Source: an uncultured Desulfosarcina sp.
Lineage (GTDB): Bacteria; Desulfobacterota; Desulfobacteria; Desulfobacterales; Desulfosarcinaceae
NCBI GenBank assembly: GCA_963674945.2
Contig: CAXXWQ010000003.1
Location: 2,016,001 to 2,080,000, forward strand
DNA: 64,000 nt
Direction of reading: 5' to 3'
Under the pieces are notes generated by a model. That model saw only the letters and a list, made by a program, of their open reading frames with translations, did not search any database and was not told the origin of the DNA. Positions 1-23,747 of the stretch are shown in pieces (position 1 is the first letter of the stretch; each line of letters begins with the position of its first letter). The translations under genes and the position numbers were made by a program.

Positions 1-897
1 CAATATTTTACAGGCCTCCTCTTCTAAATCCTCATCCCGTGCTTCCTTCAAAGCGTCTCGCAGGGTTTCAAGCTTTTCGTTAAATGCGTCCATCTGGCTT
101 TGCGTCATCTTGGCATTAAGATCACCGTATGGCTGAACCGGCAGGGAGATTGTTAGCCAATCATTATTATCAAAATTATTTAACATCATATCACATAAGG
201 AAATCAGGGCGTTAATATCCTCATATTCACCAGAAAACAAATCCTTATATGGGGAGAACCATTTTACGGCCGCAATTGTAAGGGCAATACTGAACGGTTT
301 GCCTGAATATAGCTTTTGGTCCCGCCACTTTTTAAGATAGCGGATACAGCGGCGCATTTGCGCTTTGTCATTGGCGTCGGTGAATCGGTTGTTAACTTCA
401 TTGATCAAACCCTTGGGGTCGGATATTTCCCAAAATTTTTTTTCGGAGTCTGAAAATTCTTTACCCATGGCAATATCAAGGAGCGATTCATACTGGCGTT
501 TAACATAAATTGCCAAGTCAACATGATAATCTACTTCACCATTTTTTAGATATTCCACGGTAACGCATGGCCGCCTTATCGCGACACTGCGGTTGCCTTT
601 GTTTAACGCGGTCTTTACAATTTTCTTTAATTCGACCGGATCTTCATAATCATCTTTATGGCAATCAAATATGATCCCCTCATCAATGTCATAATTGCCA
701 TCCTTGGGATTAATTCCGGTAAACATAGCATAGCTGCCCTGGTCAAAATTTTCAAAAGCGGGAGCGTCATCAGGTAAGCCGGCTTTCAGGTCATCAATCA
801 ACAATTTCCTTTTTTCGCGCAGGGTTTGATTCTCATTGAAGTTGTCGAGTTTTATTTTATTATGGAACTCAATAAATCGGTTCTGCACCTTAGGCAT
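1..897 (-). CDS. cGAS/DncV-like nucleotidyltransferase (CD-NTase, CBASS cyclase); 3' end truncated by the window edge
   Basis: Manual translation from ATG 897 (RBS AAGGAG), open to position 1: MPKVQNRFIEFHNKIKL...FDQGSYAMFTGINPKDGNYDIDEG...RRPCVTVEY...YHVDLAIY...SDPKGL...RRCIRYLKKWRD. This gives the hGS, DxD and third-Asp Pol-beta NTase motifs in a CD-NTase context. Missing from the ORF track because there is no stop in the window. Confidence 0.88.
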   Translation of the reverse strand, partial: MPKVQNRFIEFHNKIKLDNFNENQTLREKRKLLIDDLKAGLPDDAPAFENFDQGSYAMFTGINPKDGNYDIDEGIIFDCHKDDYEDPVELKKIVKTALNKGNRSVAIRRPCVTVEYLKNGEVDYHVDLAIYVKRQYESLLDIAMGKEFSDSEKKFWEISDPKGLINEVNNRFTDANDKAQMRRCIRYLKKWRDQKLYSGKPFSIALTIAAVKWFSPYKDLFSGEYEDINALISLCDMMLNNFDNNDWLTISLPVQPYGDLNAKMTQSQMDAFNEKLETLRDALKEARDEDLEEEACKIL

Positions 898-997
898 GTT
901 AAATCTCCTTTTACATCGATAGTATTTCTTTAATAAATAATAGATCTAAAACATTATAATCCTTTATGATACCTCTGTTCTTAAATACGAATAATTT

Positions 998-1111
998 ACC
1001 ATAACGCAGCTTATTTGTTTGTCAATACCATATATTGTGCGATATCATCGCAATGGATACAATATAGAGTGCCACAAAGTGGTATGCTACTTTCTTGTTT
1101 AAAAATGTCAG
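998..1111 (-). promoter_or_regulatory. CD-NTase promoter region: two sigma70-like promoters and tandem NrdR-box-like sites
   Basis: Minus strand TTGACA(1025-1020)-16-TATGGT(1003-998) and CTGACA(1111-1106)-16-TAGCAT(1089-1084). Boxes ATACCATATATTGTGC (1025-1040) and ATACAATATAGAGTGC (1057-1072) each match acaCwAtATaTwGtgt at 13/16 and are offset by 32 bp. Confidence 0.6.
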
Positions 1112-1183
1112 TCAAATTATCCGATTCATTCAATACCATTTTTAATAATAATAAGAGGCACATCCACTAAAGAATAATAATTC

Positions 1184-1312
1184 CTATTTTTTGATTTTTA
1201 TAGTTTCAACGACAGCGGTTCTTTTACGTCTTTCCGCTTCTTTCACCGGGATAAATTTACCGGTCCCGGCGTCTCTTCCAATCTTTCTGGTATTTGTTCT
1301 TTTCTTTCCCAT
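1184..1312 (-). CDS. 42-aa basic peptide MGKKRTNTRKIGRDAGTGKFIPVKEAERRKRTAVVETIKIKK
   Basis: ATG 1312 with AAAGGA RBS, TAG 1186-1184. The GRDAxTGxFIxVKEAxRRxxTxVVETI pattern is one I recall from small proteins beside ImmA/IrrE genes. Below the ORF-track cutoff. Confidence 0.7.
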   Translation of the reverse strand: MGKKRTNTRKIGRDAGTGKFIPVKEAERRKRTAVVETIKIKK

Positions 1313-1326
1313 TTCGAAATCCTTTC

Positions 1327-1585
1327 TTAATTGACCGTATAGTATTTCCACGGAATTGCATTCATCGGAACTTGAGATAAAAAGCGCACAATATCCCGAC
1401 GCCCATAATAAGTGGGAGTGCCTCTATGGTTTTGTGCCATTAGAACAACCGGCATATGGAAATAGACTGGCAAAGCTACGAATCGCTTCATTCGCTTGGC
1501 AAGAGCTTTGGGTGACTTGGTGTTTTACCACTACAATGGCAAAAGTTACGTTTTGTTCTTTTATGACCGCTCCTTGAATTCTCAT
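1327..1585 (-). pseudogene. Small conserved hypothetical protein (~86 aa) with a frameshift near 1456
   Basis: Frame 1 reads MRIQGAVIKEQNVTFAIVVVK...FASLFP and the shifted frame reads MPVVLMAQNHRGTPTYYGRRDIVRFLSQVPMNAIPWKYYTVN*. The join CCA-T-ATG lacks 2 nt. Strong RBS (AAGGA) upstream. Confidence 0.65.
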
Positions 1586-1609
1586 TCTATCCTTTCCCTT
1601 TCATATATA

Positions 1610-1688
1610 ATACGATGACGGGTTACAGGTTTTATGATATGGAAGATACATTTCCATCTTCTAATATAATATACGACATGGGGTTACA
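1610..1688. promoter_or_regulatory. Two copies of the ATACGA-N5-GGTTACA motif in the divergent intergenic region
   Basis: ATACGAtgacgGGTTACA at 1610-1627 and ATACGAcatggGGTTACA at 1671-1688; a third copy lies at 4627-4644. Confidence 0.65.
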
Positions 1689-1699
1689 GAGGAGGGGAT

Positions 1700-2224
1700 A
1701 TGGATAAACCAAGATACGGCTATGCCAGGCAACTAGCCAGAAAAGTAATAAAAGATTGTTGTGGTGCTTGCCCGCCGGTTGATTTAAAATCAATCTTAGC
1801 TCAAAAAGGTTTTGAGTATATTGAGGTAGATAACTTTCTTGATGATATCGATGCTTTATTTTTACGTAATGAAAACGACGGAAAAACCTATGCCGCCGTG
1901 AATAAGAACCATCATGTCCATCGACAGCGATTCTCTCTGGCTCATGAATTTGGGCATATTTTGATGAACCATGATCTTAATTACTATCGGCCCTACATTA
2001 CTATTGACGATCCCCCTACAGAGAAAACCCATACCGATGCTGAAGCGGCCTCTGAAAAAGAGGCTAATGCCTTTGCTGGTGAACTCTTAGTGCCGTTAGA
2101 AATGCTAAAGAAGGAATTCGAAAAGACTCCTCCTGATATAAAGCAATTATCAAAGATATTCTGGGTGAGCCCGCAGGTAGCAAGTATCGCTGTGAGCAAC
2201 CATATGAGCGCATTATATAAGTAA
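1700..2224 (+). CDS. ImmA/IrrE (DUF955) family zinc metallopeptidase
   Basis: RQRFSLAHEFGH (HExxH) and EKEANAFAGELLVP motifs, N-terminal PPVD, GGAGG RBS. Confidence 0.93.
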   Translation: MDKPRYGYARQLARKVIKDCCGACPPVDLKSILAQKGFEYIEVDNFLDDIDALFLRNENDGKTYAAVNKNHHVHRQRFSLAHEFGHILMNHDLNYYRPYITIDDPPTEKTHTDAEAASEKEANAFAGELLVPLEMLKKEFEKTPPDIKQLSKIFWVSPQVASIAVSNHMSALYK

Positions 2225-2917
2225 GTCTTTAGCGTCTCTTTTAAGTAATTCCTGTTTTAGGGAATCTATGTAAGCGGATTCGATTTTTTCCGTTTCCACT
2301 CGGCCATGACCCTTCTTTTTTTCAATCGCCGCTTGAAGGGCATCCATGGCGTGTGCTATTCGAGCGCTTTTGTCTCCGGCGTCTGACTTGATCGATGACC
2401 TTGCCATTCCGCTTATTCTTTGCCGTTTAGCCGCATTAGTAGCCAAAAATGCATTCAAAGTAGTAACAATATCAGTGATGGTCAGTCTGAACAATTGCAT
2501 AATATCCGCCATATCTTTAGCCATCAGTTTCAACGGATTGATCTGGCCATTTTCTAATCTCTCAACAAACGAGGATTCTTTATTTAAGGAATGAGCAACC
2601 TGGGAATGTGATAATCCGCTCCTATCTCTGATCAGTTGGAGAAAGCGTCCCAAGGGTAGGCTTGAAATATGTGTTTTAGCGCGAGCTTCCACAATTGCGT
2701 TTTCTGAAGAAGCTTTGGCTACTATATTATAAAAAGTGTCTTTTTCAGTGATTTTCAATTCTGTCGGCTCTATCTGATTAAATAGCCTCTCAAGATTATC
2801 TTCCATGGCGCTGTCAAAAGCACCATTCTCGGCCATGGCCCGCAATTCTGCATCAAACCTCGTCAAATCCAATTTTTTGATTTTATCAATTTGATGTTTT
2901 TTCATTACTGGCCTCAA
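2213..2917 (-). CDS. XRE-family HTH protein with N- and C-terminal extensions (probable peptidase substrate or anti-sigma); start may be ATG 2905
   Basis: LGRFLQLIRDRSGLSHSQVAHSLNKESSFVERLENGQINP is an XRE HTH. Overlaps the 3' end of the sigma gene and converges on the peptidase. Confidence 0.8.
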   Translation of the reverse strand: MRPVMKKHQIDKIKKLDLTRFDAELRAMAENGAFDSAMEDNLERLFNQIEPTELKITEKDTFYNIVAKASSENAIVEARAKTHISSLPLGRFLQLIRDRSGLSHSQVAHSLNKESSFVERLENGQINPLKLMAKDMADIMQLFRLTITDIVTTLNAFLATNAAKRQRISGMARSSIKSDAGDKSARIAHAMDALQAAIEKKKGHGRVETEKIESAYIDSLKQELLKRDAKDLLI

Positions 2918-3341
2918 TCCCGAATCTTTTTTTTATTTTTATAGAAACGCATTGATCTTCGTAAGAATCTAAAATGATTAAAATTTTATCTCTCAATTTA
3001 TTTTTTGCTCGATGATAGGCTGTTTTTACAGCTCCGACGGTTTTGTTTAAAGATTTTGCAATTTCTTTTTGCGGGATGTCACAAGCGCAACATCTTAGAA
3101 TTTCTTGATCAGTTTCACTTAGGCATTCAATAGCTTGGCACAAAATCGTTTGGGGTAGGTTTTGCTCTGAGTTTGCAGGTTCCTTCCAAAATGTTTCAGA
3201 ATCCTGAATCCCTTTCGCGGTCCGTTCATCTAAACTTTGTGATATCGAAGGATCTTTAATTTGCTTTATTTTATCTTTGGCGGTGTTGATGGCTATACGT
3301 ACCACCCAAGCGTTAAAGCTACTGCCTCTATTTAAATCAAT

Positions 3342-4389
3342 CTGGGGTATGCACTTGACTCCAGTGGCCACAACATATAGTGTACCAGTCTATGGAGGAA
3401 GATTACCCCAGAACGTTGATAGAATTTGAAAAACGATTTAGCTCTGAAGCTGGATGCACTGACTATTTGATGGCTCTTAGATGGCCCGAAGGCTTCCGTT
3501 GCCCTCATTGCGGTTCTGCATCCTCGTGGAGAACTAAACGATCCCAGTTTCATTGTACTGATTGTGGAAATCAATCTACGATAACTTCCGGTACAATTTT
3601 TCACGGCACCAGAAAGCCCTTGTCTCTTTGGTTTCGGGCTATGTGGCACATTACAGGTCAGAAGTACGGAGCTAATGCACTTGGGCTTCAGAGAGTACTT
3701 AACCTTGGGAGTTATAATACCGCCTGGCAATGGCTCCATAAACTTCGAAGAGCAATGGTTCGTCCAGGACGTGACCGATTGTCCGGGATTGTTGAAGTTG
3801 ATGAAACCTATGTCGGTGGGAAAAAGTCTGGAAAACGCGGTCGGGGTGCTGAAGGTAAAGCTTTGGTCGGTATTGCCGTGGAGGATAAAGGCCGAAAAGG
3901 AATTGGGCGAATTAGACTCTGGCACCTCGAAGACGCATCGGGAGATAGTCTGACTCAATTTGTACAAGAAATCGCCCAGCCAGGCAGCACCATCAGGACG
4001 GATGATTGGCCCGGCTATAGCAGCCTTGGCGATAAAGGATTTAAGCATATTGCGATTCCATCGCATGACTTGAAGATTGTACATTTGGTAGCGTCGCTCA
4101 TGAAACGATGGTTACTTGGTACTTATCAAGGGGCGGTCAGACCGTCTCATTTGATGTACTATTTGGATGAATTCACATTCAGGTTCAACCGTAGAACATC
4201 AGTGTCTCGCGGAAAACTATTTTACAGGCTGGTCCAACAGGCCGTGATGGTGGACCCTGCCCCAGCTAGTACTCTTAAAGGTGCATCGTTACCGTTTTTG
4301 GAAGGGGCAGCAAATTTAAATCTCGATCCAATTGACGATGACCTGGGCCACAACATATAGTATGTGCTGGATTTAAGTGCATACCCCAG
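3342..4389 (+). mobile_element. IS1595-family insertion sequence, copy 1 (1048 bp)
   Basis: Perfect 15-bp TIRs CTGGGGTATGCACTT/AAGTGCATACCCCAG. Flanks share TTAAATCAA (3332-3340, 4390-4398) with one extra base on the left. Confidence 0.95.
3380..4360 (+). CDS. IS1595-family DDE transposase
   Basis: CPHC/CTDC zinc ribbon, VEVDETYVGG, RTDDW and YLDEFTFRFNRR motifs. Confidence 0.95.
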   Translation: MYQSMEEDYPRTLIEFEKRFSSEAGCTDYLMALRWPEGFRCPHCGSASSWRTKRSQFHCTDCGNQSTITSGTIFHGTRKPLSLWFRAMWHITGQKYGANALGLQRVLNLGSYNTAWQWLHKLRRAMVRPGRDRLSGIVEVDETYVGGKKSGKRGRGAEGKALVGIAVEDKGRKGIGRIRLWHLEDASGDSLTQFVQEIAQPGSTIRTDDWPGYSSLGDKGFKHIAIPSHDLKIVHLVASLMKRWLLGTYQGAVRPSHLMYYLDEFTFRFNRRTSVSRGKLFYRLVQQAVMVDPAPASTLKGASLPFLEGAANLNLDPIDDDLGHNI

Positions 4390-4626
4390 TTAAATCAAAT
4401 TTACCAATATTTTTAACAACTTTGTAAAGGCTGTCATTTACCACTTCCAGGCTATCTTGGTGTGATAATCCGTATGATTTGGTCAAAGATAATAACTTGC
4501 CGGAATATCTATCAACCAATAACTTCAGGCAGATAGGATCATTTGCCCTAATACCAAGAACAAGGTCAGAGTCTTTTGTTTGCGCATCCATCTTTATCCG
4601 CATTTGCTTTCATTCTTTTTTATACA

Positions 4627-4644
4627 ATACGAAAGTTGGTTACA
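4627..4644. promoter_or_regulatory. Third ATACGA-N5-GGTTACA motif, directly upstream of the ECF sigma gene
   Basis: ATACGAaagttGGTTACA, 24 bp upstream of the sigma start and in the same orientation relative to minus-strand genes as the 1610 copy. Confidence 0.6.
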
Positions 4645-4745: not shown

Positions 4746-5066
4746 TTATAAAGCCAAAAGCTTCAGAAGAGAGGGCACTTTTGATGCGACCTTTACCGCT
4801 ACCTCACCAAGCTGTTCAATTTGGCGCTTTAGCTCCGCTTGACTCGTATTATTGGCAGAGGCGGCTTTAACAACCACCATCAATTCATCATATTTTTGCA
4901 GATCAGTAATTCCCGGGGTGATTTTATCAATTTGGTCGCGGGATAACCCGGCCAGTTCGTTGAGATGATCTTTGTATTTTCCCATGAAAGCTTTTTTGCT
5001 TTCCTTCAATGTCTCTTGTAGATCCGAACTGAAACCCTCTAAATCAAATTCAAAATCATCTGACAT
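4746..5066 (-). CDS. Hypothetical helical protein (106 aa)
   Basis: Clean ORF with AAAGGA RBS, 17 bp downstream of the lipoprotein gene. Confidence 0.75.
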   Translation of the reverse strand: MSDDFEFDLEGFSSDLQETLKESKKAFMGKYKDHLNELAGLSRDQIDKITPGITDLQKYDELMVVVKAASANNTSQAELKRQIEQLGEVAVKVASKVPSLLKLLAL

Positions 5067-5083
5067 TGCATTATATCCTTTCT

Positions 5084-5818
5084 TTAAATATTAAGTTTGG
5101 CTTTAAGCTCTTCAATCGTATCCTTAATGTCTTTAACCTTTTCGGTTATATCATCAATTTTATCGCCATAACCTTCAGCCGAATCAACAATTTCACCCAC
5201 CTTGGCTGATGCCTCTGCCAAACTCTGGCTTACTTCTGTCCTCAAATCCCTTTCCACTCCAACTTCTGCCAATATTTCCGATTGAGCGTCATGTACCTTT
5301 TTAATCGAAGCCAAATGGCCAGTAACGACCGCATTTGCATACTGTAGTTGGGTGTAGGCCCTGTCAATCGATCCAATAACTTCTTTTTTCTGAGTACGGA
5401 TTGGTTCGAGCAATTCTGATCTAGTATTTTCGATATCAGTTTGAATGGCTCTCACCATTATTTCCATTCCGGCGAGGACTTTCCTTTGCAATTCAGGCGA
5501 GCCTTGGTCGCTAAAGGCTTTGTTAATGGCTATCAGCAAAGATTTGTTGCGTTGAGTTTGGTCCGGGCTGTCTGCCAGTTCCTTTTGCCGAGCCATGGCC
5601 GCGTTAATTTGGTGAGGAGCATATACATCGTCAATAAAGCGGTTAATATCCTTTTCCATGCGTTCAAACATAATTCCCGCCAACTGCCGATGAGCCTCAT
5701 GAGCAACAACCAAATCCCTGCCGACCGTAGCTGATAATTCAACTGACTCTTTTGGAACCGACGCACAGGAAAATAAAAAAACCGCAATAATAAGGCCTAT
5801 TAAAAATCTAATCTTCAT
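5084..5818 (-). CDS. Alpha-helical/coiled-coil lipoprotein
   Basis: Start MKIRFLIG (ATG 5818, GGAGG RBS), hydrophobic signal with lipobox LFSC and long amphipathic helices. Confidence 0.8.
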   Translation of the reverse strand: MKIRFLIGLIIAVFLFSCASVPKESVELSATVGRDLVVAHEAHRQLAGIMFERMEKDINRFIDDVYAPHQINAAMARQKELADSPDQTQRNKSLLIAINKAFSDQGSPELQRKVLAGMEIMVRAIQTDIENTRSELLEPIRTQKKEVIGSIDRAYTQLQYANAVVTGHLASIKKVHDAQSEILAEVGVERDLRTEVSQSLAEASAKVGEIVDSAEGYGDKIDDITEKVKDIKDTIEELKAKLNI

Positions 5819-6367
5819 TCCTCCTCCTTTAGGCAAAACTTTCCAAATCCAAAATCAGAAAGATCTCACCCGAACAAAGGTCTCCTTTATAATGTTGATT
5901 AAGGATTCGGTCAGCATGAGAATCTCTTTTAGTGGACCAAAACCTCAATAATAGTTTGTTCCACTATCATCTGTTTAGTGAAAGCTATCCGCATTGCGTC
6001 TGTCATTTTCATGGTATATAGTAATTGGGCATTCAAAGTTCGCAAAAAATTCATTACAAGTCAACATTTTACTCATTTTTCCACCTATCATTTATTCCTT
6101 TTATTCGCCGTCCTCTACCAGCCTCGCACCCAAAAGGAAGGCATCAAACCGTCCGTCAAGTTCATTGCGCTTTCCACCGGCCAATTAGAGTGAGCCACTC
6201 GCCCAAATACCTCTTGACACTAAATTACAGCCATAATACCTACAAGATATAGGTTATTTCCAATTAACCTAAAGTTCCTCTCGTAGAAAAATATTTCTAA
6301 TCGATAAGAAGTTTTACCATTTTTAAAGACAAGCAAAATTGTTTTTCAAAATTTACAGAGGTCCAGA

Positions 6368-7291
6368 ATGGAATCCAATATACAATTCAAATACGAGGTA
6401 GCGCTGACATTCGCCGGCGAAGACCGCGCCTTTGCCGAAGCCGTGGCCACAGGCCTAAAATCTGCCGGCGTAAACGTTTTTTACGACGATTTCTATATCG
6501 AGGACTTATGGGGACAGGATTTAAGCGTCAAACTGAGGGACGTTTACCGCCGGTCAAGCCAATTCTGTATCATGATCATCTCAGAAAACTATGTCCGCAA
6601 AATGTGGCCCAGCCATGAGCGCCAGCAGGCCATTGAACGAATGATACAGGATCATGGCAAAACATACATCCTGCCCGTCCGGCTTAATGGCTTTAAAGGG
6701 GAAGTTCCGGGCTTTTCTGACTCAATCAGCTACCTGGCCGTGAATAGTAACGACCCGCAAATTGTCGTGGACGCCTTTCTTAGAAAAATCGGCCGAAAAC
6801 CCGATTCTCCTAAAAAAACCAAAACAAGACAGGAAATGCCTAAAATCCGTCTTCCCAAAATGAAAAAGTCCTATACGGATAGAGAAAAAAACCAATTCCT
6901 AAAAGCCTCATTTACCGAAATAGTCAATATTATTGACAGCTTTGCCAGCGGCACCAAAGACGAATATCCTCATTTTGATTACGAGATGGAAAAGATAACC
7001 TCCCGGAAAGTACTGTTCACTCTTTATAATAATGACCAGCAAGTAACCCAGTTCAAAATCTGGATTGGCGGCATCTCAGGGGGGAATTCCATTGCTTTTT
7101 CCCACGGGCGAAATGTCAACGTAGATAATGACAATACCATGAATGAGTCAATATCCATAGAAGAGCACGAAGGCGAACTCAAATTAAAACCAATGGGATT
7201 TGGCCTGTTCGGCAATAATGCTGACAAACCAATGTCGCCCCGACAGTCAGCGGATTACCTTTGGGAAGTTGTTACCAAACATCTGCAATAA
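6368..7291 (+). CDS. TIR-domain protein (TIR_2/TcpC-like N-terminus) with an uncharacterised C-terminal domain
   Basis: YEVALTFAGEDR...VFYDDF...LWGQDL...ISENYVRKMWPSHER (WxxxE catalytic Glu)...YILPVRL. Confidence 0.88.
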   Translation: MESNIQFKYEVALTFAGEDRAFAEAVATGLKSAGVNVFYDDFYIEDLWGQDLSVKLRDVYRRSSQFCIMIISENYVRKMWPSHERQQAIERMIQDHGKTYILPVRLNGFKGEVPGFSDSISYLAVNSNDPQIVVDAFLRKIGRKPDSPKKTKTRQEMPKIRLPKMKKSYTDREKNQFLKASFTEIVNIIDSFASGTKDEYPHFDYEMEKITSRKVLFTLYNNDQQVTQFKIWIGGISGGNSIAFSHGRNVNVDNDNTMNESISIEEHEGELKLKPMGFGLFGNNADKPMSPRQSADYLWEVVTKHLQ

Positions 7292-7301
7292 GGATAAAAC
7301 C

Positions 7302-7751
7302 ATGGAAGAGGAGATTAGTACTTTTGAGGAGTATTTATATGTTTATCAGAATCTGCACACCACCGCTCAAGAATTGTTTGATAAAGTAAAAAGAGTGGTA
7401 ACTGCGGATAAAGAAGCTTTTACTATTATTAAAGAAAAATCAGAAGACACCTTGTCGATAACGATTAAGATGTGTGGCTTTAAAATCAAAAGTGTCCTTG
7501 TTATCAATTCCTCAAGGGAGATCGGCCATATCAATTGGTATCATCTGTATTTTGACGAAAATGAACAGAAAGACCGGGGAGAGCTTGTATGTGAACAGTT
7601 TTTTGATACTAAGGGTTTGATATATAAAGACGAATTAAAGCAACATCCCTTATTATTCCAAATGCGGGGACGCTTCGACTCCTATTTAAAAAAAACCTTT
7701 TTCCAAATTTTCCAGGCTATAGACAACAAAGGCAACACTGGACGCAATTGA
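7302..7751 (+). CDS. Hypothetical protein (149 aa from ATG 7302)
   Basis: AAGGA RBS overlaps the TIR stop; co-oriented between the TIR and EEP genes. Confidence 0.7.
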   Translation: MEEEISTFEEYLYVYQNLHTTAQELFDKVKRVVTADKEAFTIIKEKSEDTLSITIKMCGFKIKSVLVINSSREIGHINWYHLYFDENEQKDRGELVCEQFFDTKGLIYKDELKQHPLLFQMRGRFDSYLKKTFFQIFQAIDNKGNTGRN

Positions 7752-7810
7752 TTTCCTCTGATCATTAAAGGAGCATATATACCTCTAAAAAAGGCATAGG
7801 AGGCCAAATC

Positions 7811-8851
7811 ATGTCAATCGCTTTCAAAAGCCCTTCTCCCAAGCACGCCTTCGCGGCCGCAGATGAGATCAAAGCCATCAATAAGCACTTTACCAAGCGC
7901 CAGGTACCAAAATCAAAAAATAACAATCTACTCTTGGCTTCCTGGAATATAGCCAACTTTGGAGCTCAAGACCGGACCGATGAGGCCTTAAAGGTCATAG
8001 CGCATATCCTCAAACGCTTTGACCTCATTGCCGTTCAGGAGGTTAACGACCAGTTCAGAACTTTCGAAAAAGTAATCTCTTTAATGGGAAAATCTTTCAA
8101 CTACGTTATGACTGACACGGCCGGTAATGCCGAGCGCCTGGCTTTTGCATACCGCCATAGCCTGGTTTCACCCTCCCATCTTTTCGGTGAGTTGTCGCTA
8201 AGGCCGCGCCAATATCCCAAAAGGACGGTCCGCGTGCGCTGGACAGACAAAAACGGTAAGGCTCAAGTTGATGTTTTCAAAAACCACCGCTTTGAACCCT
8301 TTGACCGCAACCCTTACATCGGCTCTTTCATTTCTGGAAATATCGAATTCACTCTGGCCAATGTGCATCTCTATTTTGGAGAATTCCAGGACTCAAAAAC
8401 CAGAGAACAGCGCGAAAAATACGCCCGGCGCGTTTTAGAAATTTATACCTTAAGCAAATGGGCCGGGGGGCGCATCAAAAAACATACTACCTATGACCCG
8501 GATATCGTCTTGCTGGGAGATATGAATGTGCCCTCGATGGAACCAAATGAAAGCACCTATAAGGCCCTTATAAAATTCGGCTGGCAGCCCGTAAATTTCG
8601 TGACCAAAACCGGCGGTTCCAACCTGGGCAACGATAAAACCTACGACCAAATGGCTTTTGCGCCTGGTAGCATTGGCAACCGCATCAAAGATTTTGGTGT
8701 TTTCGATTTTGACAAGGCCGTTTTCCAGCCCCTATGGAAAGATTTAATTTCCGAAATGTATAAAAGCAGGGCAATTGGCTTATTCAACCGCCACGTTAGA
8801 CACCATTTTTCCGATCATCGTCCTTTATGGGTTCAGTTAGATACCGTTTAA
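7811..8851 (+). CDS. Endonuclease/exonuclease/phosphatase (DNase I-like) family protein
   Basis: SWNIANF, IAVQEV, NVHLY, LGDMN, YDQ and SDHRP motifs; GGAGG RBS. Confidence 0.92.
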   Translation: MSIAFKSPSPKHAFAAADEIKAINKHFTKRQVPKSKNNNLLLASWNIANFGAQDRTDEALKVIAHILKRFDLIAVQEVNDQFRTFEKVISLMGKSFNYVMTDTAGNAERLAFAYRHSLVSPSHLFGELSLRPRQYPKRTVRVRWTDKNGKAQVDVFKNHRFEPFDRNPYIGSFISGNIEFTLANVHLYFGEFQDSKTREQREKYARRVLEIYTLSKWAGGRIKKHTTYDPDIVLLGDMNVPSMEPNESTYKALIKFGWQPVNFVTKTGGSNLGNDKTYDQMAFAPGSIGNRIKDFGVFDFDKAVFQPLWKDLISEMYKSRAIGLFNRHVRHHFSDHRPLWVQLDTV

Positions 8852-11496: not shown

Positions 11497-12170
11497 TAGT
11501 TTGAGGTGAGGAATTATTATTGATAGTGGCCGAAAAAGAATTATAGGAGGGTTAATGAAAAACCGAAAAATATTATTTATGGTGACTGTTTGGTTTTTAC
11601 TATTAATTTACCGGCCTTGTTTTGCAGATATAGATGATGTTCTAAAACAAATTGTTCCAAAAATGACTGGCTTAGGATACACCCATTTACAATATAACCC
11701 CTCCAAAGTTCCAGGTCATACTCATTTGGGGGTAGATATTATGGCTCCATGTGGATCTTTGATTTATCCATTTGCTGACGGAATTGTTACGAAGATATTC
11801 AATAATACAAACGGTCTCGGTTACGCTATTATGATTCGTCATCCTGGATTAGGTAGCCTCGGAAAGGATCTTTATACAATATATCTACATATGCAAAGCG
11901 AACCAAATATTAATGGCAAAATATTATCTACTGGCGATAATGTTTTTATTGATAAGCCGATAGGCGAAATAGGCGAATCAGGATTTGCATCTGGTTGTCA
12001 TACTCACTATGAAATTCGTAATTTTTATCATGAGAATGCACCTGGTGGTGGTTGGTATCATAAAGATTCAAAAAATTGCGATGGAACACAAAACATTTAT
12101 GCTTGTGGTGATTTGAGCGATGTTGATTGGGCTATAAATGATTGGGAAAATCCACAAACATTTAAAGTTT

Positions 12171-13218
12171 CTGGGGTATGCACTTGACTCCAGTGGCCAC
12201 AACATATAGTGTACCAGTCTATGGAGGAAGATTACCCCAGAACGTTGATAGAATTTGAAAAACGATTTAGCTCTGAAGCTGGATGCACTGACTATTTGAT
12301 GGCTCTTAGATGGCCCGAAGGCTTCCGTTGCCCTCATTGCGGTTCTGCATCCTCGTGGAGAACTAAACGATCCCAGTTTCATTGTACTGATTGTGGAAAT
12401 CAATCTACGATAACTTCCGGTACAATTTTTCACGGCACCAGAAAGCCCTTGTCTCTTTGGTTTCGGGCTATGTGGCACATTACAGGTCAGAAGTACGGAG
12501 CTAATGCACTTGGGCTTCAGAGAGTACTTAACCTTGGGAGTTATAATACCGCCTGGCAATGGCTCCATAAACTTCGAAGAGCAATGGTTCGTCCAGGACG
12601 TGACCGATTGTCCGGGATTGTTGAAGTTGATGAAACCTATGTCGGTGGGAAAAAGTCTGGAAAACGCGGTCGGGGTGCTGAAGGTAAAGCTTTGGTCGGT
12701 ATTGCCGTGGAGGATAAAGGCCGAAAAGGAATTGGGCGAATTAGACTCTGGCACCTCGAAGACGCATCGGGAGATAGTCTGACTCAATTTGTACAAGAAA
12801 TCGCCCAGCCAGGCAGCACCATCAGGACGGATGATTGGCCCGGCTATAGCAGCCTTGGCGATAAAGGATTTAAGCATATTGCGATTCCATCGCATGACTT
12901 GAAGATTGTACATTTGGTAGCGTCGCTCATGAAACGATGGTTACTTGGTACTTATCAAGGGGCGGTCAGACCGTCTCATTTGATGTACTATTTGGATGAA
13001 TTCACATTCAGGTTCAACCGTAGAACATCAGTGTCTCGCGGAAAACTATTTTACAGGCTGGTCCAACAGGCCGTGATGGTGGACCCTGCCCCAGCTAGTA
13101 CTCTTAAAGGTGCATCGTTACCGTTTTTGGAAGGGGCAGCAAATTTAAATCTCGATCCAATTGACGATGACCTGGGCCACAACATATAGTATGTGCTGGA
13201 TTTAAGTGCATACCCCAG
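12171..13218 (+). mobile_element. IS1595-family insertion sequence, copy 2
   Basis: Same TIRs as copy 1; 8-bp TSD TAAAGTTT (12163-12170, 13219-13226). Confidence 0.96.
12209..13189 (+). CDS. IS1595-family DDE transposase
   Basis: Protein identical to 3380-4360. Confidence 0.95.
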   Translation: MYQSMEEDYPRTLIEFEKRFSSEAGCTDYLMALRWPEGFRCPHCGSASSWRTKRSQFHCTDCGNQSTITSGTIFHGTRKPLSLWFRAMWHITGQKYGANALGLQRVLNLGSYNTAWQWLHKLRRAMVRPGRDRLSGIVEVDETYVGGKKSGKRGRGAEGKALVGIAVEDKGRKGIGRIRLWHLEDASGDSLTQFVQEIAQPGSTIRTDDWPGYSSLGDKGFKHIAIPSHDLKIVHLVASLMKRWLLGTYQGAVRPSHLMYYLDEFTFRFNRRTSVSRGKLFYRLVQQAVMVDPAPASTLKGASLPFLEGAANLNLDPIDDDLGHNI

Positions 13219-22058: not shown

Positions 22059-23106
22059 CTGGGGTATGCACTTAAATCCAGCACATACTATATGTTGTGG
22101 CCCAGGTCATCGTCAATTGGATCGAGATTTAAATTTGCTGCCCCTTCCAAAAACGGTAACGATGCACCTTTAAGAGTACTAGCTGGGGCAGGGTCCACCA
22201 TCACGGCCTGTTGGACCAGCCTGTAAAATAGTTTTCCGCGAGACACTGATGTTCTACGGTTGAACCTGAATGTGAATTCATCCAAATAGTACATCAAATG
22301 AGACGGTCTGACCGCCCCTTGATAAGTACCAAGTAACCATCGTTTCATGAGCGACGCTACCAAATGTACAATCTTCAAGTCATGCGATGGAATCGCAATA
22401 TGCTTAAATCCTTTATCGCCAAGGCTGCTATAGCCGGGCCAATCATCCGTCCTGATGGTGCTGCCTGGCTGGGCGATTTCTTGTACAAATTGAGTCAGAC
22501 TATCTCCCGATGCGTCTTCGAGGTGCCAGAGTCTAATTCGCCCAATTCCTTTTCGGCCTTTATCCTCCACGGCAATACCGACCAAAGCTTTACCTTCAGC
22601 ACCCCGACCGCGTTTTCCAGACTTTTTCCCACCGACATAGGTTTCATCAACTTCAACAATCCCGGACAATCGGTCACGTCCTGGACGAACCATTGCTCTT
22701 CGAAGTTTATGGAGCCATTGCCAGGCGGTATTATAACTCCCAAGGTTAAGTACTCTCTGAAGCCCAAGTGCATTAGCTCCGTACTTCTGACCTGTAATGT
22801 GCCACATAGCCCGAAACCAAAGAGACAAGGGCTTTCTGGTGCCGTGAAAAATTGTACCGGAAGTTATCGTAGATTGATTTCCACAATCAGTACAATGAAA
22901 CTGGGATCGTTTAGTTCTCCACGAGGATGCAGAACCGCAATGAGGGCAACGGAAGCCTTCGGGCCATCTAAGAGCCATCAAATAGTCAGTGCATCCAGCT
23001 TCAGAGCTAAATCGTTTTTCAAATTCTATCAACGTTCTGGGGTAATCTTCCTCCATAGACTGGTACACTATATGTTGTGGCCACTGGAGTCAAGTGCATA
23101 CCCCAG
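22059..23106 (-). mobile_element. IS1595-family insertion sequence, copy 3 (inverted)
   Basis: Same TIRs; 8-bp TSD AAAACTTA (22051-22058, 23107-23114). Confidence 0.96.
22088..23068 (-). CDS. IS1595-family DDE transposase
   Basis: Protein identical to copies 1 and 2. Confidence 0.95.
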   Translation of the reverse strand: MYQSMEEDYPRTLIEFEKRFSSEAGCTDYLMALRWPEGFRCPHCGSASSWRTKRSQFHCTDCGNQSTITSGTIFHGTRKPLSLWFRAMWHITGQKYGANALGLQRVLNLGSYNTAWQWLHKLRRAMVRPGRDRLSGIVEVDETYVGGKKSGKRGRGAEGKALVGIAVEDKGRKGIGRIRLWHLEDASGDSLTQFVQEIAQPGSTIRTDDWPGYSSLGDKGFKHIAIPSHDLKIVHLVASLMKRWLLGTYQGAVRPSHLMYYLDEFTFRFNRRTSVSRGKLFYRLVQQAVMVDPAPASTLKGASLPFLEGAANLNLDPIDDDLGHNI

Positions 23107-23747
23107 AAAACTTATTTCGATGCCGTCATCCAAGAATACCCGCACCATTATTTTCAGACAGACCAGCGATCTTCTCAGGCAAAAATCACTTTCGATTTTA
23201 ACCAAGCCCACATCTTAACCAAACAAAATCACGCCACCCGTCTGGCTCAGCTCCTTTTACAGGCCGTAACCGACAACCGTATGCGCCATGAGACTCTCCA
23301 ACAATTCATGCTGGTTAATGATTCCGTTACCGTGGCCATGGAAGTACCAATTTTCCTCACTCCGGAGGATATCCATAAATACAAACATAAGTTCGGCTTC
23401 CAGATACCAATAGAATTAAAAGACGTACTCACTGGCCATATTGACCTTCTTCAGATCAGGAATGGCTATATTCATATCCTTGATTACAAGCCCAATGCCA
23501 AACGGGAAAAACCATATGCTCAATTGACACTCTATGCCTTGGCGCTTTCCCGACTGACAGATCTTCGCCTTATGGATTTCAAATGCGCTTGGTTTGATGA
23601 AAACCATTATTACGAATTTTTTCCTTTGCAACTGGTACACAAAAAACACACCCGCCGGAAAAATATTCCCTCCAAAAAGACCACCCCAAAGGGTGGCCGA
23701 AATGGAGGTCCTTAATATTGCTCGATGAATTATTAAAGCACGCTGAT

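Follow-up and report, generated by a model that had tools for sequence, protein, structure and literature searches.

Organization of the locus

The DNA considered here (the window) is a stretch of 64,000 nucleotides from an uncultured Desulfosarcina sp. (GenBank assembly GCA_963674945.2, contig CAXXWQ010000003.1, positions 2,016,001 to 2,080,000). Its first 4,644 positions carry the beginning of a cyclic oligonucleotide-based antiphage signaling system (CBASS) and, beside it, genes for a sigma factor of the extracytoplasmic function (ECF) type, a protein with an XRE-type helix-turn-helix (HTH), called here the partner, and a zinc peptidase of the ImmA/IrrE type. A short motif precedes both the sigma gene and the genes lying on the CBASS side of the peptidase (the cargo), and the three genes are candidates for a regulatory switch based on proteolysis.

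The CBASS is of type II and complete in one operon, constituted by genes for a CD-NTase, an E2-E1 protein (Cap2), a JAB protein (Cap3) and a 2TM-SAVED effector (PADLOC matches: cyclase, 5.9e-126; E1-E2, 4.7e-125; JAB, 2.2e-50; 2TM-SAVED, 4.1e-35). The CD-NTase (331 aa in all, Pfam DncV-like/SMODS) is the first gene, its 5' part occupying positions 1-897 of the minus strand; the E2-E1, JAB and 2TM-SAVED genes extend beyond the left edge of the window (L001 11582-15897). The peptidase gene (1700-2224, plus strand) codes for 174 aa with the signature HEFGH...EANAF (Peptidase_M78, 1.5e-18) and converges on the partner gene (2213-2905, minus strand; 230 aa, HTH at residues ~82-150), whose start is overlapped by the 3' end of the sigma gene. 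The latter is in two pieces, carrying regions 2 and 4. Its 5' part (4390-4603, minus strand, start likely at 4591) gives a weak match to Pfam Sigma70_r2 and its 3' part (2886-3340, minus strand) contains the end of region 2, region 4 (Sigma70_r4_2, 3.3e-9) and a C-terminal tail. The preliminary description of this DNA had assigned the cyclase, the peptidase, the XRE-like protein and the sigma factor in this same arrangement, and had also recognized that the sigma gene is inactivated by an insertion sequence (IS).

The element responsible (3342-4389, plus strand; transposase at 3380-4360, DDE_Tnp_IS1595 1.7e-27) has the features of the IS1595 family: the transposase domain with a Zn ribbon, terminal inverted repeats and a target duplication of ~8 bp. 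On either side of it lies a target of 8-9 bp that has been duplicated (3332-3340 and 4390-4398), across which the two sigma pieces share one frame; both align with intact relatives, the 5' piece being 64% identical to the intact sigma factor of a related locus (L002). The architecture is that of ECF (group IV) factors, with regions 2 and 4 and no region 3, and the L002 protein matches TIGR02937 (3.8e-17) above its cut-off. The best matches among solved structures are SigE, AlgU and SigW, and the predicted model has two domains joined by a low-confidence linker (predicted local distance difference test, pLDDT, <50 at residues 93-119). Since the 12 copies of the element in the genome (the read depth is some 14-fold that of the flanks) are identical, the insertion is likely recent. 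No IS-free sigma allele was present among the short-read contigs examined. Three of the 12 copies (3342-4389, ~12170-13218 and ~22059-23107) lie within a low-GC island of 30 kb.

Two small open reading frames (ORFs) separate the cyclase from the motif on the minus strand. Both had been noted previously, but a correction is needed: they are a 42-aa basic ORF of the GRDAGTGKFIPV type (1184-1312), second behind the motif, and, first behind it, an 86-aa gene (1327-1585) that is frameshifted near position 1455. Short-read contigs from two runs of one sample, which is probably the source of the assembly, are identical to the window over 900-3370, which shows that the assembly is not alone in having the frameshift. 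The 86-aa gene is unbroken in two related loci, L004 (9315-9575) and L006, and belongs to a widespread, unnamed family with large clusters in the Atlas; near-identical versions of the 42-aa ORF, for which Pfam and NCBIfam gave no match, occupy the equivalent place in the same two loci. In the window and its relatives, the small proteins right behind the motif comprise the 86-aa family, a 42-44-aa GRDAGTGKF type, a Ser/Lys-rich protein of 85 aa and a Cys/His-rich protein of 68 aa (window 1184-1585; L002 7410-7667; L004 9315-10365), none of them with a match in Pfam or NCBIfam.

The small ORF and the cyclase are 286 bp apart. This gap contains a sigma70-like site, TTGACA-16-TATGGT (998-1025, minus strand; 10/12 match to the consensus), ~100 bp ahead of the CD-NTase, which is a candidate basal promoter independent of the switch; regionwide there are 14 such sites, against 11.1 in shuffled sequences. 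No terminator-like site was seen on the minus strand between the small ORFs and the cyclase.

A directional motif with a 7-bp spacing

The 18-base sequence ATACGA-N5-GGTTACA occurs exactly at positions 1610, 1671 and 4627, as the preliminary description had it, and these are the sole three exact copies in the genome of 7,075,866 bases. In 100 shuffles, the mean was 1.1 matches even when two mismatches were allowed. Elsewhere in the genome there are eight one-mismatch sites, two of them copies of a single prophage site, for a chance estimate of about eight; the one at C3:1985677, which belongs to a neighbouring Mu-like prophage, was dismissed as chance together with its copy on C1. Read on the minus strand as TGTAACC-N5-TCGTAT, each of the three copies is directed at the gene downstream. 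The copy at 1610-1627 lies 24 nt ahead of the 86-aa gene. The copy at 1671-1688 also points toward the cargo, and on the opposite strand abuts the Shine-Dalgarno site of the peptidase gene (1689-1695). The third, at 4627-4644, is upstream of the sigma gene and is a candidate autoregulatory promoter.

Comparison of gene neighbourhoods supports the earlier proposal of a three-component system, in that the three genes and the motif are conserved in relatives. Allowing up to three mismatches, and counting the window and the other loci with the corresponding DNA, the motif precedes the sigma gene in 9/9 cases and the cargo in 7/7; shuffled regions gave a match in 1.3% and 1.8% of trials. The distance from TGT[AT]AC to xGT is 7 in all 16 regions, never 15 or 16, and the order is never reversed. 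Thus, the ECF-type arrangement TGT[AT]AC-N15/16-xGT is found in 0/9 of the sigma upstream regions and the N7 arrangement in 9/9, and no conserved element was found 16 bp from either half of the motif. The consensus has no palindromic symmetry. Where the peptidase gene is convergent and the relevant DNA is available (six loci), there are two cargo-side copies at a distance of 45-62 bp, and one of the two abuts the ribosome-binding site of the peptidase gene. The motif is retained in the distant locus L173, despite an identity of 27% between its sigma factor and that of L002, with CGTT there instead of CGTA. It is placed 53 nt ahead of a multi-ubiquitin gene in L008 and 82 nt ahead of the first gene of an E2-E1-JAB operon in L173. 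A weaker element, YRRA (motif positions 25-27, 18-20 nt past TGTAAC), is present in 16/22 sites, against 1-13 at other offsets, this pattern having been picked after inspection of the sites.

Which protein reads the motif

Several features of the sigma factor fit the two halves of the motif. The helix of region 4 (GAVKVAHLRA), in which K171 and R176 are invariant in 36/36 sequences, is nearest among solved structures to that of ShbA and SigD (GAVRVAQHRA), a weak match with E-values of 0.012-0.013. The ShbA promoter is CGTAAC-N16-CGATGA, and region 4 of ShbA is mobile and dispensable in vitro (PMC12019637). In region 2, an invariant Asp occupies the DxxR/K position, and the preceding loop is similar to the loop that the SigE/SigW chimera 5OR5 has from SigW (it differs in L173). 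The SigW loop selects A at the -10 element. The Asp at the DxxR position is reported to read the CG of ECF -10 elements (PMC3397946). The promoter predicted for ECF120, TGTAACAAA/TCGTCAT, contains the words TGTAAC and TCGT (PMC7826278 supplement); the accessible part of that classification supplement holds no M78, DUF955 or IrrE entry.

The recognition helix of the partner behaves differently. Its position 111 is the most variable column of the HTH (2.87 bits), and the helix is unconserved in the 68 relatives aligned and unrelated in L173. Because the residues of regions 4 and 2 fit the two halves and the recognition helix of the partner varies, the sequence evidence is in favour of both halves being read by the sigma factor and not by the XRE protein. 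The earlier alternative, that the motif is an operator for the XRE protein, is disfavoured on the same grounds and by the asymmetry of the motif. An additional argument from acidic residues in the partner HTH was dropped, as the residue of C.BclI that corresponds to position 102 is a Glu.

The partner protein, its Ala-Arg loop and the peptidase

The model of the partner consists of a helical N-terminal domain of ~80 aa, a central XRE-type HTH, a low-confidence loop containing MARSS (pLDDT <50 at 163-183) and C-terminal helices. The XRE fold (~82-150) gives structural Z-scores of 5-6.7 to HigA, ClgR, DdrO and CapH. The first 50 residues, where an anti-sigma factor of the ASD type would have its sigma-binding helical bundle, are helical with low model confidence and their matches have a Z of about 4; Foldseek with the partner returned no match at E<=0.001.

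The preliminary description had placed a candidate cleavage site near ISGMARSS, and conservation speaks for this location. The codons for M167-A-R-S-S171 (2393-2407, minus strand) encode the predicted site of recognition and cleavage by the peptidase; its M, A and R are invariant in 40/40 close relatives of the partner, and among the 68 distant ones R169 is kept in 64 and A168 in 49. Only L21, R93, E118 and R169 are nearly invariant among the full-length proteins aligned. The cut is predicted before R169 (A168|R169) because CapH and DdrO are cut before Arg, at F82|R83 (10.1101/2022.04.27.489752) and at EL|RGKR (PMC6765133), respectively, and the self-cleaving VapB52 has a conserved FR motif (PMC13273310).

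The peptidase matches the PADLOC capP profile (2e-23) only over profile positions 5-138 of 242. It has no GAF domain, the protein ending at 174 aa, and there is no Cys common to all of its relatives, the peptidase of L012 having no Cys at all. As in CapH/CapP systems, an HExxH metallopeptidase is encoded within 10 kb of the CD-NTase, upstream and on the opposite strand. However, the short repressor with an N-terminal HTH that shares the CBASS promoter region in those systems is absent; the partner gene lies beyond the peptidase gene and is convergent on it.

Relatives of the module and their cargo

The module family is rare. Close relatives, mostly metagenomic, number 44 for the partner, besides itself, and 38 for the sigma factor, besides the query sequence. 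A profile search over all cluster representatives gave 78 partner proteins at E<=1e-10, from which 68 full-length proteins were aligned, and this wide profile found three further loci in 390 genomes of the phylum. Beyond the host genome, the close-family profile detected no relative among 400 genomes of the phylum and 400 of the order, and two weak matches in 200 order genomes (G562 and G292) were discarded as generic HTH genes. Two GTDB-wide scans, one with the partner protein and one with the paired motif, found nothing, and plasmid searches gave nothing relevant to the module. Viral contigs contained 30 distant peptidases and no partner relatives, one unrelated ECF factor (L015), and 120 single-motif matches, about the chance level, none of them near relatives of the three genes. 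Longer proteins did not include any fused forms, although as evidence this is weak.

A metagenome scan recovered 12 loci, 8 of them distinct. The sigma gene directly precedes the partner gene in 8/8 and a convergent peptidase is present in 7/8, L010 ending inside the partner. L173 is a distant version of the module, in which the peptidase gene is co-directional and the identities to L002 are 27% (sigma), 25% (partner) and 39% (peptidase).

The cargo is variable. In the window it is the CBASS, and in L002 a small ORF followed by patatin and CD-NTase genes, with TTGACA ahead of the patatin. In L008 it consists of multi-ubiquitin, DUF6791/ThiF and DUF6527 genes, which we read as Bub-type, and in L173 of an E2-E1-JAB fusion and a protein with a metallo-beta-lactamase-like motif (our own reading, with no Pfam match). 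L004 has nothing but small ORFs, which no defence operon follows; L006 has two small ORFs before its contig ends, and L012 is cut off. Therefore, the suggestion that the module is specific to CBASS does not stand, a CD-NTase being present in 2/7 loci with cargo DNA, nor is the defence operon as a rule the immediate target, as the first gene behind the motif is usually a small ORF. On the other side, the neighbours include restriction-modification, AAA/subtilase, integrase and conjugation genes. Directly before the switch of L008 (1314-3133) there is another regulator, in which XRE and peptidase M78 are fused and which has a gene of 223 aa upstream of it, and directly upstream of the switch of L173 (10555-19968) there are DuOB, DUF488-family, SNF2 helicase and DNA methylase genes.

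MqsA antitoxin fusions sharing the module

Residues 71-222 of the partner are homologous to the tail of an MqsA antitoxin fusion (hhalign 95%, E 3.5e-8). The peptidase search gave one other match in 400 genomes of the class (L168), and there are two units resembling toxin-antitoxin (TA) systems, L168 2011-3769 (G078:C85) and L174 8196-~9910 (G255:C25). In both, a DUF4258-like gene for the putative toxin is followed by MqsA fused to the HTH-loop-helix module and then by a related IrrE-type peptidase. No sigma gene adjoins the module and the motif was not found upstream in either (2/2); instead, both have the palindrome ACACCAATTGGT upstream. Since the HTH-loop-helix module is common to the partner and the MqsA fusions, it appears to be a cleavable tether that is portable and on which the N-terminal domain is swapped, being an antitoxin in one case and a candidate anti-sigma domain in the other. 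The two units could in themselves represent an undescribed protease-triggered TA system.

Proposed mechanism and alternatives

We propose that the three genes form a mobile switch in which the XRE-like partner would hold the sigma factor inactive until the predicted cut of the Ala-Arg loop, the freed sigma factor then firing the motif; from the sequence data we give this reading a probability of roughly 0.5. The sigma factor and the partner, encoded by overlapping genes, would be co-translated and bound to each other, probably through the helical N-terminal domain of 80 aa. A damage or infection signal, perhaps single-stranded DNA by analogy with CapP and VapB52, would activate the peptidase, in which no sensor domain was found, and the partner would be cut before R169. 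Region 4 would then read TGTAAC and region 2 would read CGTA, 7 bp apart, leading to positive autoregulation and inducing the small ORFs, with read-through extending expression to the defence operon. The motif copy overlapping the 5' end of the peptidase gene may finally shut down peptidase expression.

The wider claim, that this sigma family initiates at -35/-10-type elements 7 bp apart and is released by a portable protease-cleavable tether also present on MqsA antitoxins, is tentative and we lean against taking it whole. Several observations weigh against the proposed mechanism. A spacer of 7 bp is not easily reconciled with the known geometry of the holoenzyme, and no precedent for a short-spacer ECF promoter was found in the literature searched. 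The YRRA element could be a -10 element at a near-normal distance from TGTAAC, making CGTAT something else; alternatively, it could be the start site after a CGTA -10 element. The partner retains a complete, repressor-like XRE fold with the R93/E118 pair (Z of 5.5 to DdrO and 5.1 to the CapH N-terminal domain). Most loci are close kin (the 8 distinct metagenome loci have partners 38-59% identical to that of the window) and are therefore not independent, a recognizable defence operon is found downstream in only 4/7 loci, a plain count, and the comparison with the two TA-type units (n=2) is confounded by MqsA's own HTH.

The fold of the partner, which is that of DdrO, CapH and ImmR, and the location of one motif copy over the 5' end of the peptidase gene, a typical operator position, could also indicate repression as in CapH/CapP: the partner would bind the motif and be removed by cleavage, the sigma factor acting on an overlapping ordinary promoter (TGTAAC as -35, the YRRA found in 16/22 sites as -10) or as a downstream amplifier. 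CapH does repress CBASS (10.1101/2022.04.27.489752). However, the operator of DdrO is palindromic (PMC6765133) and the motif is asymmetric and always directed at the downstream gene, the recognition helix varies while the motif is fixed, and both module loci lacking the sigma gene also lack the motif; we consider this explanation unlikely. Another view is that the sigma factor and the partner remain together on the DNA, with no release: the partner would pull region 4 off the flap of RNA polymerase, one turn closer to region 2, or the complex would repress, cleavage shifting it between states. Both halves of the motif fit regions 4 and 2 at a spacing 9 bp short, near one helical turn, and the mobility of region 4 in ShbA (PMC12019637) and the low-confidence linker of the sigma model are consistent with such a displacement. 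The attachment of an antitoxin to the module in the TA-type loci points instead to a generic cleavable tether and not to a transcription co-factor, and a standing complex is improbable in our opinion.

It could finally be argued that the switch governs the small ORFs only, as a stress or anti-phage micro-operon, and that the CBASS is a neighbour in the defence island with its own promoter. In L004 the small ORFs behind the motif are not followed by a defence operon, nor is one seen in the available DNA of L006; the gap before the cyclase with its sigma70-like site, and the TTGACA before the L002 patatin, agree with this view, as does a CBASS that is intact although the sigma gene and the first small ORF are broken. 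The position of the motif shortly before the multi-ubiquitin gene of L008 and the E2-E1-JAB operon of L173, and the missing terminator-like site before the cyclase, stand against it, and it appears very unlikely.

In this particular genome, the IS in the sigma gene and the frameshift in its first target gene indicate that the switch is likely dead, and the CBASS could be served by its own basal promoter at the sigma70-like site. For the CBASS studied by Lau et al., low basal expression suffices (10.1101/2022.04.27.489752). The original proposal that the sigma factor controls the defence operon is supported as regards the conservation of module and motif, but direct control of this CBASS is doubtful because the sigma gene is disrupted and a separate sigma70-like site precedes the cyclase.

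Comparison with known regulators

The preliminary description knew of no sigma-driven CBASS regulator. The association of a sigma factor with capH, capP and CBASS is, however, already in print as a remark on gene neighbourhoods: 24/408 capP-bearing CBASS loci also encode a factor of the sigma70 family, uncharacterised in the accessible text of that work (Lau 2022, 10.1101/2022.04.27.489752). No description of a sigma-driven mechanism, of the motif or of a sigma/peptidase defence switch was found in the literature searched.

The module shares with CapH/CapP an IrrE-family peptidase and a protein with an XRE-type HTH, located upstream of defence operons that include CBASS, a peptidase gene divergent from the cargo and a candidate cut before Arg. 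In contrast, the partner has 230 aa (about 107 aa in CapH), its HTH being central and an additional domain being present at the N-terminus, the peptidase lacks the GAF domain and conserved Cys of CapP, and the genes of the partner and a sigma factor are coupled, with a directional DNA motif that resembles an ECF promoter. DdrO/IrrE (PprI) and ImmR/ImmA have the XRE fold with the R-E pair, and in DdrO the cleavage loop is C-terminal to the HTH (PMC6765133), but these are repressors acting on palindromic operators with no dedicated sigma factor. In VapBC52, a cut of the IrrE type at a hydrophobic-Arg motif frees a protein held by an N-terminal domain; there, however, self-cleavage occurs within one antitoxin and the freed partner is a toxin and not a sigma factor (PMC13273310). 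ShbA/SigD (ECF40), ECF120 and SigW/SigE also have regions 2 and 4 only and promoter words GTAAC and CG(T), and the region-4 helix of ShbA/SigD resembles the one found here. The elements of their promoters are, in contrast, ~16 bp apart instead of 7, and no membrane or zinc-binding anti-sigma gene adjoins the sigma gene here. CapK/CapS and CapW are likewise regulators upstream of varied immune operons, but they operate through a kinase or by WYL de-repression, with no sigma factor or protease.

What appears to be new is the combination of a 7-bp promoter-like motif and a tether common to antitoxins on an immune regulator of the IrrE type. CapH/CapP, CapW and CapK/CapS act by de-repression, whereas a protease-released sigma factor, if true, would be positive control with feedback, and the motif offers a precise candidate binding site to the class of sigma-bearing systems that was listed in Lau 2022 but is not studied in its accessible text. 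If true, the two promoter elements would be nearer to each other, by about one helical turn, than those of the ECF promoters in the papers cited; should the 7-bp spacing work as a promoter, it would challenge the -35/-10 geometry that is fixed in holoenzymes of the sigma70 family and provide an orthogonal expression part. The tail common to MqsA antitoxins suggests a general route by which any bound protein could be placed under the control of an IrrE-type protease, and such a portable module would represent a plug-in damage sensor for immune genes with a new promoter architecture.

Surrounding genes

A Mu-like transposable prophage (G000:C3 ~1965000-2008200; L001 1-8200 and leftward), with at least one further near-identical copy, on C1, stops ~3 kb to the left of the CBASS operon, which it excludes. 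Between its end and the CBASS (L001 8032-11492) there are a replication-relaxation gene and a Phd/YefM antitoxin gene with an adjacent small gene. Two coupled genes located directly upstream of the sigma motif (4746-5836, minus strand) encode a lipoprotein-like coiled-coil protein of 244 aa and a protein of 106 aa, neither of which could be assigned to a family. Further genes of the defence island, located at 6368-8851 of the plus strand, encode a TIR-domain protein (PADLOC ThsB-like, 2e-18), an uncharacterised protein of 149 aa and an EEP-family nuclease.

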